NCBI GenBank assembly: GCA_902774395.1
Contig: CACYIK010000004.1
Coordinates: 30,932-94,931, forward strand
Length of the DNA stretch: 64,000 nt
Direction: 5' to 3'
DNA from: an uncultured Bacteroidota bacterium
GTDB lineage: Bacteria; Bacteroidota; Bacteroidia; Bacteroidales; P3
Program-made: the position numbers and the translations under genes
Part shown: positions 11,298-19,445 of the stretch, piece by piece
Position numbering within the stretch: the stretch's first letter is position 1
Layout: each line of letters opens with the position of its first letter
The notes under the pieces: model-generated
The model's database searches: none
The model's input: only the letters and a program-made list of their open reading frames with translations
Told to the model about the DNA's origin: nothing

Positions 11298-14003
11298 ATG
11301 ACACCGGAAGAGAAGGCTAGAGTTAAGATAGACCAGATGTTTGAGGACGCTGGCTGGAAGGTGGTGGATAGGGATTTCTATTCGCCAACCCTTACAGCTG
11401 CAGCTATTCGAGAAGGCCTTATGAACGGTAATCGAGAAGCCGACTACTTCCTGTTTATCAACGGTATGGCCGTAGGTGTGTTGGAAGCGAAACGTAAAGA
11501 GGTGGATGTAACCACGACTATTGTATGCGAACAGGCAGAACTATATGCCCGTGGTGTCCCCAATTGTTATAAGGCTTACTCTCGACCTCTCCCTATCATC
11601 TATCAGTCAAACGGCGAAGAAACATACTTCCGTGATTTCCGCGATAAAGAAGGCGAACTAGTAGAAACCGATCGCATCTATACTCCGAAAGAGATTGTCA
11701 AAATGCTGGGTATAGACGACCCCTACGCCGGTTTGCCTGATTTAAAAAGAAAAGGGCTGCGCGATTGTCAGTATGAGGCTATCCGCGAATTGGAAAGCAG
11801 TTTCCGCGCAGGTCAAAAAAAAGCCTTGATAGTGTTGGCTACAGGGGCGGGCAAGACTTACACCGCCTGTATGGCCGCCTATCGCTTTCTGGCTTTCACT
11901 CCGGTGAAACGTATCCTTTTCCTGGTCGACCGAAACAATCTTGGCAAACAGGCAGAAGGAGAGTTTGGAATGTTCCGCCTGACTGAAAATGGCGACCCGT
12001 TCAACACCATCTTTACGGTGGATCGCCTGAGGTCTGCCAAAGTGCCGTCGGACAGCAATGTGGTCATCTCCACCATACAACGCCTGTTCTCTCTTCTCAC
12101 AGGTAAGGAGATAGTAGATAATGATGACGACGATGAAGACACCGCCACAGAAGAAGTACAGTTGCCGGGAAACATCACGATTCCACCAGATTTCTTCGAC
12201 CTGATTATAATCGACGAATGCCATCGTTCCATCTATGGCAATTGGAAGAAAGTGTTGGATTACTTCCAAACAGCCAAAATGATAGGGCTGACGGCGACCC
12301 CTGTCCCCGAAACAAAGGCCTTTTTCAACAATAACATTGTTGTCAATTACACGCTTGAACAATCCATCGTGGACGGCGTGAATGTAGATGCCCGCGTTTA
12401 TCGTATCAAGACAGAGGCCACAGAGAATGGTGGCGCTATCTTGATAGGCGACAAACTGAGACGGATGACACGATATACAGGCAAGGTGGAAACCATCCGC
12501 AACGAAGAGTCGAAGAACTACACAAAAGAGGAACTGAACCGCAGCATTATCAATCCGGCACAAATCAAGCTCGTGCTGGAAACATATCGCGATACTGTCT
12601 ATACTGAGATGTTCACCGACCCTCAGCGTGAGCCGAATATGGATTATCTGCCCAAGACACTCATTTTCGCGCTGAACGAAATCCATGCCAACAATATCGT
12701 GACGATTGCAAAGGAAGTGTTTGGACGGACAGACGACAAGTTTGTGCAAAAGATTACATACTCCTCGGGCGACAGCAACGAGTTAATCCGTCAGTTTCGC
12801 AACGACAAGGAATTCCGCATAGCAGTCACCTGCACATTGGTGGCAACGGGCACGGATGTGAAACCGCTCGAAGTGCTGATATTCATGCGCGATGTGGCAT
12901 CCGAGCCGCTTTGTATCCAGATGAAAGGTCGCGGCGTGCGCACCATAGGCGACGACCAGCTGCGCAACGTCACCCCCAATGCCTTCAGCAAGGATTGTTT
13001 CTTCCTCGTAGATGCCGTAGGCGTAACCGAGAGCCAAAAGACTGTCACAAGTCCAGGCAATGGTGAAACCGAGCAAAATATCACGCTGAAACGGTTGCTG
13101 GAGCTGCTGACTCACGGCAACGTGAACGATGACTATCTGCGCTTGATTGCCGCCAAACTCGCGCGTATCTACAACAAGTGTACCGACAAACAGCGAGAGG
13201 AGTTTGAAAGAATGGCCCACAGCGGTATGCAGGAAATCTCGGCTGCCATCTTCGACGCTTTGGAGAAAAACACGTTGCCTCCATACGAAAGCATCGATGA
13301 GCCGAATTTTGAACGTAAAGCGTTGGTGGCTCCGCTGACCCATCATCCCGAGGCGCGTCAGTTTCTGCTTATCCTTGCGGCCGGTTTTGTGGAAACACTT
13401 ATGCCTGGCGAAGACCAGCTGATATCAAAAGGATTCTCGCAAGAGGAGGCAAAAGAGCTCACTTCGGCATTTGAGAAATACTGCGAGGAACATCAAGACG
13501 AGATTGAGGCACTTCGAATGATTTACAACAACGAGGGGGAGCCTCTGACCTACTATATCCTGAAAGACTTGGAGAACAAGCTGAAGATGGCCAACAATCG
13601 CTTCCAGTCGTCCCGCATCTGGAACTCGTATGCCATTGTAAGTCCTCAAGCTGTGAAGAAGCATACCACCAAGGAGGAGAAAGAGGCGCTCACCAATATC
13701 ATTCAGCTGGTGCGTTTCGCCAACCATCAGATAGAGAAACTGGAGAGCCTTTACCCATTGGCTCAGCAGCGTTTCAACCTCTGGTATGGTCAGATGCAGC
13801 GCACAGTGACCGAGTCTCAGATAGCCATCATCCGGCAGATAGTGGATTATATCGCTTCCAACGGAGCCTGCACCATCAAGGATATTATCGAGGACGACAG
13901 AAACCGTGCGGCCCAGCTCATCAATGCCTTCGGAGGGAAGGAGCAGGCCGACGAAGCCCTCGTGTCGCTCTCCAAATTCTTACTTTACAGAAAAACAGCA
14001 TAA
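11298..14003 (+). CDS. hsdR: type I restriction endonuclease subunit R
   Basis: 901 aa. N-terminal nuclease-like region (READYFLFINGMAVGVLEAKR). SF2 helicase motifs (LATGAGKT, IIIDECHRS, GLTATP, ATGTDV, QMKGRGVR). Confidence 0.93.
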   Translation: MTPEEKARVKIDQMFEDAGWKVVDRDFYSPTLTAAAIREGLMNGNREADYFLFINGMAVGVLEAKRKEVDVTTTIVCEQAELYARGVPNCYKAYSRPLPIIYQSNGEETYFRDFRDKEGELVETDRIYTPKEIVKMLGIDDPYAGLPDLKRKGLRDCQYEAIRELESSFRAGQKKALIVLATGAGKTYTACMAAYRFLAFTPVKRILFLVDRNNLGKQAEGEFGMFRLTENGDPFNTIFTVDRLRSAKVPSDSNVVISTIQRLFSLLTGKEIVDNDDDDEDTATEEVQLPGNITIPPDFFDLIIIDECHRSIYGNWKKVLDYFQTAKMIGLTATPVPETKAFFNNNIVVNYTLEQSIVDGVNVDARVYRIKTEATENGGAILIGDKLRRMTRYTGKVETIRNEESKNYTKEELNRSIINPAQIKLVLETYRDTVYTEMFTDPQREPNMDYLPKTLIFALNEIHANNIVTIAKEVFGRTDDKFVQKITYSSGDSNELIRQFRNDKEFRIAVTCTLVATGTDVKPLEVLIFMRDVASEPLCIQMKGRGVRTIGDDQLRNVTPNAFSKDCFFLVDAVGVTESQKTVTSPGNGETEQNITLKRLLELLTHGNVNDDYLRLIAAKLARIYNKCTDKQREEFERMAHSGMQEISAAIFDALEKNTLPPYESIDEPNFERKALVAPLTHHPEARQFLLILAAGFVETLMPGEDQLISKGFSQEEAKELTSAFEKYCEEHQDEIEALRMIYNNEGEPLTYYILKDLENKLKMANNRFQSSRIWNSYAIVSPQAVKKHTTKEEKEALTNIIQLVRFANHQIEKLESLYPLAQQRFNLWYGQMQRTVTESQIAIIRQIVDYIASNGACTIKDIIEDDRNRAAQLINAFGGKEQADEALVSLSKFLLYRKTA

Positions 14004-14009
14004 CATTCT

Positions 14010-18343: not shown

Positions 18344-18347
18344 ACTC

Positions 18348-19445
18348 ATGAATAGGCTTGTACTCATAGGCAACGGCTTCGACTTGGCGCACGGCTTGAA
18401 AACAAGCTATGCGGATTTCATCAACTGGTATTGGGCGCAGTGGGGATACTTATTGAGAGGAAAAGCAAAAAGATTTGAAGAAGATGAGCTCTGTTCGTTT
18501 TCGCTGAATGAGATAGGACTGGGTGGCTGGTATCTTGTTTGGAGTCATTATTATCAAAAACAAAACCCCTTCGATTGGGATTTGAATGAGGTGGCGAAAT
18601 TAGCAAGAGAGGATCGAAAACTATGTGAATTCAAATACAAAAGCCCTTTCTTCGAGCATATCAACAAAAGCTTTGAAAACAAACGATGGGTTGATATCGA
18701 AAACGAATACTATGACTTACTGGTAAAGGCAAAAACATTTGGCAACCAATATCAATCTCTTAACAAACAATTGGAGTCTGTCCGTAACAAACTAATAACA
18801 TTTCTATGTGAGGTGAGCAAAGAACAACCTCCTATGATAGAGGAAATAAAAGAAAAAATATATCGTCCAATAGAAAGGAGAGAACTGCAAACATCTCACC
18901 CATATGTCAGAAATGAAGAATTAGTCATCAGGAACACGTTGTTGCTCAACTTCAACTATACCAACACTCCGGAAATGTATTTGGCAGATAATTCGACGGT
19001 CAACTACATACACGGGAAATTAGATGACCCTCAAAGCGTAATCTTCGGCTATGGGGATGAATTGGACGAGAATTATAAAAGGCTCAAGGAGCAAAATGAT
19101 AGCGAGTGTATGCGTCATGTGAAGTCCATCCGATACTTGGAGCACGACAACTACCGTCGCATGCTCGAGTTCATCGAGTCGGCCCCTTTCCAAGCCGTCA
19201 TTATGGGGCACTCCTGTGGCAATAGCGACAGAACATTGCTTAACACCATCTTTGAACACCGCAACTGCTTATCAATAAAGCCATATTATTACCAGAAAGA
19301 CGATAAGACAGACAACTATTCCGAATTGACAATAAACATCAACCGAAATTTCAGCGACCCAAAACTGATGCGCGACCGCGTGGTATGCAAAGATTACTGC
19401 GAACCACTAACTGGGGTGAAACCAGGAGTAATAGTAATGGGGTAG
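18348..19445 (+). CDS. AbiH-like abortive-infection family protein
   Basis: 365 aa. The N-terminus LVLIGNGFDLAHGLKTSYADFINWYW matches the hallmark N-terminal motif of the AbiH family (Pfam AbiH) as I recall it. Starts 4 nt after the hsdS stop. AT-rich like the hsdS TRDs. Confidence 0.65.
   Translation: MNRLVLIGNGFDLAHGLKTSYADFINWYWAQWGYLLRGKAKRFEEDELCSFSLNEIGLGGWYLVWSHYYQKQNPFDWDLNEVAKLAREDRKLCEFKYKSPFFEHINKSFENKRWVDIENEYYDLLVKAKTFGNQYQSLNKQLESVRNKLITFLCEVSKEQPPMIEEIKEKIYRPIERRELQTSHPYVRNEELVIRNTLLLNFNYTNTPEMYLADNSTVNYIHGKLDDPQSVIFGYGDELDENYKRLKEQNDSECMRHVKSIRYLEHDNYRRMLEFIESAPFQAVIMGHSCGNSDRTLLNTIFEHRNCLSIKPYYYQKDDKTDNYSELTININRNFSDPKLMRDRVVCKDYCEPLTGVKPGVIVMG

Follow-up and report, generated by a model that had tools for sequence, protein, structure and literature searches.

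A prokaryotic Schlafen and an AbiH-family protein as passengers of a type I restriction-modification operon in an uncultured Bacteroidota bacterium

Why should an operon that encodes a type I restriction-modification (R-M) system carry two further genes, and would these genes act with the R-M enzyme or apart from it? The question is raised by a 64,000-nucleotide (nt) stretch of DNA from an uncultured Bacteroidota bacterium (assembly GCA_902774395.1, contig CACYIK010000004.1, positions 30,932 to 94,931; hereafter, the window). Five consecutive genes of this window encode the R-M subunits HsdR, HsdM and HsdS, a prokaryotic Schlafen (pSlfn, or Slfn) inserted between hsdM and hsdS, and an AbiH-family protein placed after hsdS (Table 1). 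We found that the core of this operon, including the Schlafen gene, recurs in other genomic contexts, and that AbiH forms an exchangeable tail. On balance we lean towards a layered defence, in which R-M would act first and the two co-transcribed passengers would serve as independently triggered abortive effectors.

Table 1. Features of the operon and its surroundings (window coordinates; protein residues where stated).
Feature	Position	Strand	Description
Bacteroidetes-type promoter	11227-11258	+	-33 TTTG, N20, -7 TATCTTTG; 40 nt 5' of hsdR ATG
hsdR	11298-14003	+	901 amino acids (aa); type I restriction subunit, EcoAI/EcoEI (type IB-like) kind
hsdM	14010-15434	+	474 aa; N6-adenine methyltransferase subunit
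Passenger 1, prokaryotic Schlafen of the HisKinase-HTH ('Schlatpase' plus winged helix-turn-helix, wHTH) class	15441-16883	+	480 aa
Domains of passenger 1	residues ~1-130; ~285-391; 427-476		Slfn nuclease; GHKL ATPase; Fic-like_C wHTH
hsdS	16913-18343	+	specificity subunit with two target-recognition domains (TRDs); start GTG 16913, ATG 16931 or ATG 16937
TRD1 of hsdS	17160-17585	+	segment replaced relative to sister operons L087 and L093
Passenger 2, AbiH family protein	18348-19445	+	365 aa; SIR2-like predicted fold; N-terminal GNGFDLAHG motif
Conserved non-coding 3' flank travelling with AbiH	19446-19621	+	alignments with L004 and with L087 both stop at 19621
78-nt element, copy 1	19501-19578	+	core 21-mer GCTTAAACTGAGGTCGGCGAC at 19544-19564
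78-nt element, copy 2	19845-19922	+	86% identical to copy 1
AbiEi_2 antitoxin/regulator	10356-10940	-	Pfam 83 bits; divergent neighbour, outside the operon, same low-GC island
AbiEii-like nucleotidyltransferase	9501-10352	-	sub-threshold in Pfam (19.8 bits, cut-off 22.5); weak PADLOC PDC-M21B match

All five open reading frames (ORFs) lie on the same strand with the coordinates and short gaps that a preliminary description of this locus had reported: 6 nt between hsdR and hsdM, 6 nt between hsdM and the Schlafen gene, and 4 nt between hsdS and the AbiH gene. The gap upstream of hsdS is 29, 47 or 53 nt for the three candidate starts in the order of Table 1. The single TAnnTTTG box previously noted ahead of the operon proved better supported than claimed, being part of a full bipartite promoter pattern (TTTG-N17-23-TAnnTTTG). 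The window contains 6 matches to this pattern, where shuffled sequence would give 0.53, each of them preceding a gene start, and a scan of the whole window identified zero copies within 11298-19445. The homology of a sister operon, L087 (L-numbers denote comparison loci, and P-numbers homologous Schlafen proteins), begins at 11243 in blastn comparisons, placing the -7 box inside the conserved unit. We found no convincing forward-strand terminator within the operon, and the terminator-like matches (15 found, against 8.7 +/- 3.4 expected) were all located inside ORFs. We infer that the five genes probably form one transcript.

The domain content of the R-M core is that of a complete type I system, as had been proposed, and each of the five operon proteins scored above its Pfam gathering cut-off. 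HsdR matched ResIII (127 bits), EcoEI_R_C (103 bits), SWI2_SNF2 (79 bits) and HSDR_N (31 bits) in Pfam and REase_I in PADLOC. Its best NCBIfam models scored below their equivalog cut-offs (PRK11448, 306 bits against 729; restrict_EcoAI, of EcoAI/FtnUII, 187 bits against 550), indicating an enzyme of the EcoAI/EcoEI kind but not a curated equivalog. HsdM contained N6_Mtase (233 bits) and HsdM_N (53 bits) domains and matched PADLOC MTase_I (PDLC03026, 557 bits), and HsdS contained two Methylase_S stretches (98.8 bits) and matched PADLOC Specificity_I (345 bits). Together, the three subunits are predicted to perform sequence-specific methylation and ATP-dependent restriction.

The first passenger was placed by profile search in the families previously suggested for it: SLFN_AlbA_2 (PF04326; 53.4 bits, cut-off 25.3), HATPase_c_4 (PF13749; 55.0 bits, cut-off 26), and, at the C-terminus, a Fic-like_C wHTH (58.1 bits, cut-off 27; structure match 4rgl). 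It retains catalytic-type residues in the form of an E15-x4-E20 pair, a Schlafen box (CAFSND, residues 36-41) and a GHKL N-box (RELLMNACMHR), in which E292 and N296 correspond to E314 and N318 of RzAgo. Across an alignment of 44 sequences (35% mean column identity) E15 and E20 were nearly invariant, and N296 was invariant. The family profile matched the AlbA_2 nuclear magnetic resonance structure 2kyy (1e-3), the tRNase CbCash (9ylu, 6e-3) and, for the GHKL domain, 3lmm (2e-17). The family is large, with 13,581 clusters at 50% identity (E <= 1e-3); its conserved core comprises residues 1-393, the C-terminus is variable, and many homologs of ~400 aa lack the wHTH. An AlphaFold2 model of this protein was rejected as unusable (pLDDT, short for predicted local distance difference test, 53.9; alignment of 47 sequences, 78-98% identical).

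This architecture, AlbA_2 followed by a PF13749 GHKL or 'minimal histidine kinase' domain and a C-terminal (w)HTH, is that of the HisKinase-HTH pSlfns, with which the protein shares the E-x4-E pair, the Schlafen box (CAFSN) and the GHKL E-x3-N. HisKinase-HTH proteins make up 19.2% of 5,930 prokaryotic Schlafens, second only to HisKinase alone at 34.0% (Taboada et al., Nat Microbiol 2026, PMC13056530), and the 'Schlatpase' supradomain (Slfn plus GHKL) is found in 58.6% of 103,533 Slfn proteins, most of them small, with or without a C-terminal HTH (10.64898/2026.05.29.728809). Prokaryotic Schlafens have been demonstrated to be tRNases (PMC13056530, PMC13462974) that are activated by phage (PMC13056530), and in the pAgo fusion RzAgo the binding of ATP to the GHKL domain drives a tetramerisation that assembles the Slfn tRNase (10.64898/2026.05.29.728809). 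By analogy, the window protein is predicted to cleave tRNA when triggered. The proven pSlfn tRNases carry sensors (Ig-like, DUF262, Csx15, pAgo) other than those of the HisKinase-HTH class, and the window protein departs from the pSlfn canon in having Thr at the position of the motif Lys and a wHTH of the Fic-like_C type.

HisKinase-HTH pSlfns are likewise residents of defence loci, embedded in methyltransferase-based systems. At least 1017 taxa have members of the class in close linkage with BREX or BREX-related loci (PMC13056530; 10.64898/2026.05.29.728809; PMC12839542), a survey of BREX names the same architecture a 'backup suicidal effector' (PMC12839542), and the AlbA_2 plus HATPase_c_4 (plus HTH) family COG2865 is listed as FAM_00002 of the genes found inside BREX, DISARM and type I R-M loci (Payne et al. 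2024 supplement, bioRxiv 10.1101/2024.01.29.577857). Schlatpases have also been reported as stand-alone genes in type I R-M operons (10.64898/2026.05.29.728809). The window gene differs from its BREX-linked counterparts in lying between the hsdM and hsdS of a type IB-like system.

In PADLOC, the only matches of the Schlafen protein were fused relatives, a long pAgo and pAgo-associated SIR2-PNTD1-PNTD2 proteins. Its linker and GHKL domain (residues 146-363) matched 'Aga_SIR2-PNTD1-PNTD2' (E = 1.8e-15), indicating that the same chassis exists with a SIR2 effector instead of a Schlafen. In the window operon the SIR2-like protein, AbiH, is a separate gene, as opposed to the fused SIR2 of the pAgo-associated proteins.

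Could the Schlafen protein be a regulator instead of an effector nuclease, controlling the expression or establishment of the R-M operon in the manner of C-proteins or RptR? Dedicated repressors of R-M islands are reportedly known, the protein carries a C-terminal winged helix, its close homologs are named 'putative DNA binding domain-containing protein' (with the legacy annotation 'transcriptional regulator / putative DNA-binding protein'), and Thr22 stands where the canonical E-x4-(E/D)-x-K motif has Lys. However, the family as a whole conserves the acidic active-site pair together with the Schlafen box and the GHKL N-box, the wHTH is its variable and dispensable part, and the same module is a nuclease effector in RzAgo and Cash. 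At the position of the motif Lys, 54 of the 92 scorable family representatives (at 50% identity) have Thr and 32 have Lys. We consider a regulatory role very unlikely, given the conserved catalytic-type residues and the intact ORF.

The second passenger was confirmed as a member of the AbiH family (Pfam PF14253, 115.4 bits against a cut-off of 30.9, residues 4-307; PADLOC AbiH, 44 bits), in agreement with the earlier assignment. Its homologs are numerous, and their alignment contains an invariant GNGxD N-terminus together with invariant N139, N203, H222, D237, S289/C290/G291 and D294. An AlphaFold2 model (pLDDT 87.1; predicted template modelling score 0.86) was compared by Foldseek with known structures, and the 38 best matches in the PDB were defence-associated SIR2 proteins (Nezha SIR2-HerA, SPARSA, DSR2, Avs5) plus the NAD-binding KomBC; a search of the PDB by sequence returned no match. 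From the model, AbiH is predicted to adopt a SIR2-like (sirtuin-type) fold, and it is predicted to deplete NAD+. AbiH has been assigned elsewhere to the SIR2-like 'SIRim' clade, with NAD+ depletion suggested (10.1101/2024.09.18.613514; PMC13064643), and a single-gene AbiH of Vibrio protects by 5.7 orders of magnitude, with phage inhibitors known (10.1101/2024.06.14.598830). A system named DS-37 is reported to occur together with AbiH. With the AbiH of Lactococcus lactis, a single-gene system in DefenseFinder and PADLOC, the window protein shares the GNGFD Rossmann-type motif and a length of ~360 aa encoded by a single gene, and its predicted fold is best matched by defence-associated SIR2 proteins. 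It differs in having no promoter of its own, in starting 4 nt after hsdS, and in belonging to a Bacteroidales, gut and rumen clade whose members habitually stand last in type I R-M operons, with a conserved non-coding element on their 3' side.

The statement in the preliminary description that the mode of action of both passengers is not established is therefore partly outdated: prokaryotic Schlafens have been shown to be tRNases, a mechanism for the Slfn plus GHKL module has been published for a pAgo fusion, and AbiH is a verified single-gene defence.

We investigated the conservation of the operon in its closest relatives. The R-M-Slfn-S order is kept at 90-95% nt identity in two other genomic contexts: L087 is 95% identical to the window from 11243 to ~17160, and L093 is 89.5% identical from 11298 to ~17160. 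In both, identity stops at 17160 in hsdS and returns at ~17571-17585, with the central and C-terminal parts of the gene kept. Judged from these alignments, the exchange of TRD1 between otherwise 90-95%-identical operons is a classic specificity swap, and the sister enzymes would differ in specificity.

The sister operons differ in their tails. The relatives encoding P0002, a Schlafen 98% identical to that of the window, contain the whole R-M-Slfn-S-AbiH block at a different chromosomal site (L087-L090), with AbiH split into ORFs of 177 and 168 aa (12907-14007 in L087), probably as a pseudogene. Those encoding P0007, a Schlafen of 96% identity, contain R-M-Slfn-S without AbiH (L093-L098); a convergent Mrr_cat (type IV restriction-like) gene is found instead, and overlaps the 3' end of hsdS (12873-13721 in L093). 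Directly 5' of this last operon, on the same strand (~2400-5720 in L093), we additionally identified genes for a T5orf172/MUG113 protein, a Ser/Thr protein kinase and a TPR protein, a trio that is possibly a further defence module.

The closest relative of the window AbiH gene lies in an unrelated type I operon (L004/L005), with the order HsdR, DUF1016, HsdS, AAA_13, HsdM, acetyltransferase, 142-aa ORF and AbiH. Identity to this operon (93% nt over 18348-19621) starts exactly at the AbiH ATG and ends 176 nt beyond the gene. The boundaries of homology in L087 and L004 thus delimit a conserved unit of ~11243-19621 (8.4 kb), and within it a cassette of AbiH and its 176-nt 3' flank. This natural variation points to a stable R-M-Slfn-S core with an exchangeable AbiH tail. 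L004/L005 belong to the same passenger-rich type I lineage as L105-L112, in which we identified DUF6978, DUF1828/1829, AAA_13, a 486-aa acetyltransferase, an ASCH-like 144-aa protein and AbiH, followed by Fic; in L004/L005, DUF1016 takes the place of DUF6978 and DUF1828/1829, and a Slfn fragment after AbiH takes that of Fic. The AAA_13 proteins of both groups belong to what we take to be a Pfam family associated with PrrC/RloC-type ATPases.

A conserved non-coding element was found 3' of the AbiH stop codon in every close relative (L004 7449-7650, L087 14008-14160, L099 7759-7953). It contains a 78-nt segment, present in two copies in the window as against one in related loci, that is flanked by variable runs of 8-nt AATGYGTA repeats. 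Its core 21-mer, GCTTRARCTGAGGTCGRCGAC, includes two small palindromes, AATCGATT and GTCGNCGAC, and was identified in 12 of 192 loci, always ~80-200 nt 3' of the AbiH coding region. Possibly the element serves as a site for recombination or protein binding and marks where the cassette ends. An RNA antitoxin of the type III toxin-antitoxin kind, or another structured RNA, was rejected as an explanation for the 8-nt repeats, as there was no Rfam match and the central palindrome varies without compensation. Between the two 78-nt copies of the window lies a 12-nt tandem repeat, TTACAATAAATG, in ~4 copies (19704-19751), and the segment ~19622-19844 has a weak (79%) match to L004 (over 19629-19750) and none to L087.

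To what extent are these placements general? The Schlafen family was surveyed in 80 species genomes, almost all of Bacteroidota, with homologs of 49-86% identity whose loci were found with a 14-sequence alignment, and the AbiH family in 80 metagenomic contigs, with homologs of 36-60% identity. The hsd genes were labelled with hidden Markov models built for this analysis, so that all hsd counts are lower bounds; neighbouring genes were also counted by Pfam at each position. AbiH occurred at the tails of type I operons far above chance, and Schlafen genes occurred near R-M genes in a minority of loci.

Of the 58 AbiH loci that have upstream sequence, 35 carried an hsd gene within the four genes that precede AbiH on its strand, and in 25 of 72 loci the gene immediately upstream had the same orientation and encoded HsdS, HsdR or HsdM. 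None of the 251 genes at positions +1 to +6 downstream was an hsd gene. AbiH proteins of the window clade are thus 3'-terminal passengers of type I operons, a position that recurs in type I operons of several families (also L099 and L105). For Schlafens, an hsd-like gene lay within four genes on either side in 24 of 80 loci and AbiH in 2 of 80; by Pfam, the preceding gene was an N6_Mtase in 5 of 43 and the following gene was of HsdR type in 5-7 of 43. Positions varied (after M or before R), many contexts were unrelated to R-M, and the other neighbours were very diverse, including PglZ, GmrSD, AAA_15/21, PIF1, integrases and housekeeping genes, with 154 BLAST clusters among 208 proteins encoded by operon neighbours.

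Schlafen genes were found within four genes of AbiH in 14 of 80 AbiH loci, and immediately downstream in 6 of 72. This +1 position was enriched over all others (odds ratio 3.2, p = 0.026, in statistics that ignore kinship). The contrast between Schlafen genes near (within four genes) and far from AbiH was not significant (odds ratio 1.8, p = 0.26), because Schlafen genes heading the same operons count as far. The evidence for a specific pairing of AbiH with Schlafens is suggestive only. AbiH with a Slfn plus GHKL gene or fragment directly behind it was observed in L099 (1573-9429), L122, L125, L126, L167, L168, L170, L046, L083 and L004 (7751-8038). Such pairs often follow a type I M-S pair, as in L099 (HsdM of 688 aa, HsdS of 727 aa, a 265-aa ORF, AbiH and a Schlafen of 491 aa), in an order that differs from that of the window.

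The earlier proposal, that the tight embedding reflects a composite module rather than chance neighbours, stands in part. Chance is contradicted by the conservation of R-M-Slfn-S in two further contexts and by the polar placement of AbiH at operon tails. A fixed five-gene composite is not what we found: AbiH is split in the 98%-identical sister and absent in the 96%-identical one, and the passengers are independent and separately exchangeable. Might they, then, be selfish or decaying cassettes in a permissive, well-expressed locus, with no contribution to defence? The decay or absence of AbiH in sister lineages would fit such an origin, as would the sharp cassette boundaries and conserved 3' element, which are suggestive of mobility, and the highly variable neighbourhoods of both families. 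Against this, both ORFs are intact and preserve their family-invariant residues, the Schlafen accompanies R, M and S in several contexts and retains 96-98% aa identity, both families have been linked experimentally to defence, and random insertion would not be expected to leave hsd genes upstream of AbiH only. Because of the intact ORFs and conserved catalytic-type residues, we rate this as the least probable of the explanations discussed here.

The layered defence that we favour would operate as follows. The type I (EcoAI/EcoEI-like) enzyme would methylate host DNA and cut unmodified incoming DNA. In a second layer, the Slfn-GHKL-wHTH protein would behave like RzAgo, RorSlfn5 and Cash, forming oligomers upon binding ATP and cutting tRNA when triggered, and the SIR2-like AbiH would deplete NAD+. 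Each passenger would be fired by its own cue and would act without needing the R-M enzyme; embedding would provide co-expression and co-inheritance, with the passengers as separately exchangeable cassettes. Embedded defence genes elsewhere can work alone, as shown for TgvAB (PMC11411939) and HECs.

Several observations weigh against this account. The nuclease activity of the Schlafen is less than certain, given the replacement of the motif Lys by Thr, and the matches of the AbiH model to SIR2 structures (probability up to 1.0, E = 6e-5) have TM-scores of just 0.30-0.39. Two HisKinase-type pSlfns that were assayed on their own in E. coli failed to protect against a phage panel (PMC13056530), which could mean that they require a partner, for example an R-M or BREX complex. 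A fusion of Schlatpase to HsdS, reported in Poribacteria (10.64898/2026.05.29.728809), hints at physical coupling. Finally, the strictly 3'-terminal and promoter-less placement of AbiH would also fit a dependence on R-M expression.

The main alternative is modelled on PrrC and EcoprrI; in it, one or both passengers would be held latent by the R-M complex, or would read its state. A phage anti-restriction factor (a DNA mimic or an Stp-like peptide) or a stalled enzyme would then provoke tRNA cleavage and NAD+ depletion. The inactivity of HisKinase-pSlfns alone and the HsdS fusion would both fit such a guard. Unrelated type I families also repeatedly show tight, polar embedding, the R-M-Slfn-S unit is intact in three contexts, PrrC, likewise a tRNA nuclease, is found almost only inside type I R-M loci, and the protection given by TgvAB is 10-100 times better inside its R-M cluster (PMC11411939). 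However, AbiH is a one-gene system elsewhere and is dispensable in the sister operons, and ~70% of the sampled Schlafen homologs have no recognisable R-M gene within four genes on either side, amid extremely diverse neighbours. We therefore view a guard of this type as possible yet unlikely.

The likeness to PrrC is a functional analogy. Like PrrC/EcoprrI and RloC, the window Schlafen joins a regulatory ATPase domain to a suicide nuclease that (here by prediction) targets tRNA; it is encoded inside an hsd operon, as are its counterparts in the sister operons, and by this parallel it would plausibly form a second line if restriction is neutralised. PrrC consists of an ABC-ATPase and a C-terminal anticodon nuclease, to which the Schlafen, GHKL and wHTH domains are unrelated, and searches of both passengers with Pfam and PADLOC gave no PrrC, RloC or AAA_13 match and identified neither a PrrC-like ABC ATPase nor an anticodon-nuclease domain, a result that counts against the guard.

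The operon lies in an island of 38-52% GC between flanks of 55-59% GC with housekeeping genes such as those for SecDF, RadC, cyclophilin and LemA, and from this difference in composition we consider it to be horizontally acquired. We found no tRNA gene, no plasmid or phage match and no integrase adjoining the unit. The divergent AbiEi_2/AbiEii-like pair of the same island has its own bipartite promoter match (11031-11061, reverse strand). At the left edge of the island, a 134-aa ORF (8968-9372, forward strand) has a sub-threshold Fic-like_C wHTH match (25 bits, cut-off 27) and may be the remnant of another Slfn-type gene with such a domain. Elsewhere in the window, a 902-aa UvrD/REP-type helicase (24330-27038, forward strand) contains an RNase_T (DEDD) exonuclease domain between its N- and C-terminal helicase domains.

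Both passenger families, and embedding of this kind, have already been described. Defence genes inside type I R-M, BREX or Hma loci are known from Payne et al. 2024 ('guilt by embedding'), from TgvAB of V. cholerae VPI-2 and from the Campylobacter rlo genes, and there, too, non-R-M genes are inserted into or appended to an hsd operon in the same orientation and with minimal gaps. In the searchable literature we did not find a description of the combination of a type IB-like R-M system with a pSlfn and AbiH, nor any mention that this AbiH clade lies strictly at the tail of type I operons or has a conserved 3' element. In our survey, the AbiH relatives of gut and rumen Bacteroidota are predominantly 3'-terminal type I passengers with such an element.

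A broader speculation, which we think rather doubtful, is that HisKinase-HTH Schlafens guard methyltransferase-based complexes in general (type I R-M, BREX), docking on or monitoring HsdM/HsdS, to which the reported HsdS fusion points, and cleaving tRNA upon inhibition or stalling, with AbiH as a habitual third layer expressed by read-through and often directly paired with a Schlatpase gene. If true, the logic of PrrC would have been reinvented with unrelated proteins, and on a far larger phylogenetic scale.

The operon adds one case to the published rule by which defence genes reside inside type I R-M and BREX loci. It additionally provides a natural test bed, in which the same R-M-Slfn-S core occurs with AbiH intact, broken or absent, for asking what activates the HisKinase-HTH Schlafens, which are abundant but silent in phenotype, and whether effectors embedded in this way communicate with the R-M enzyme.

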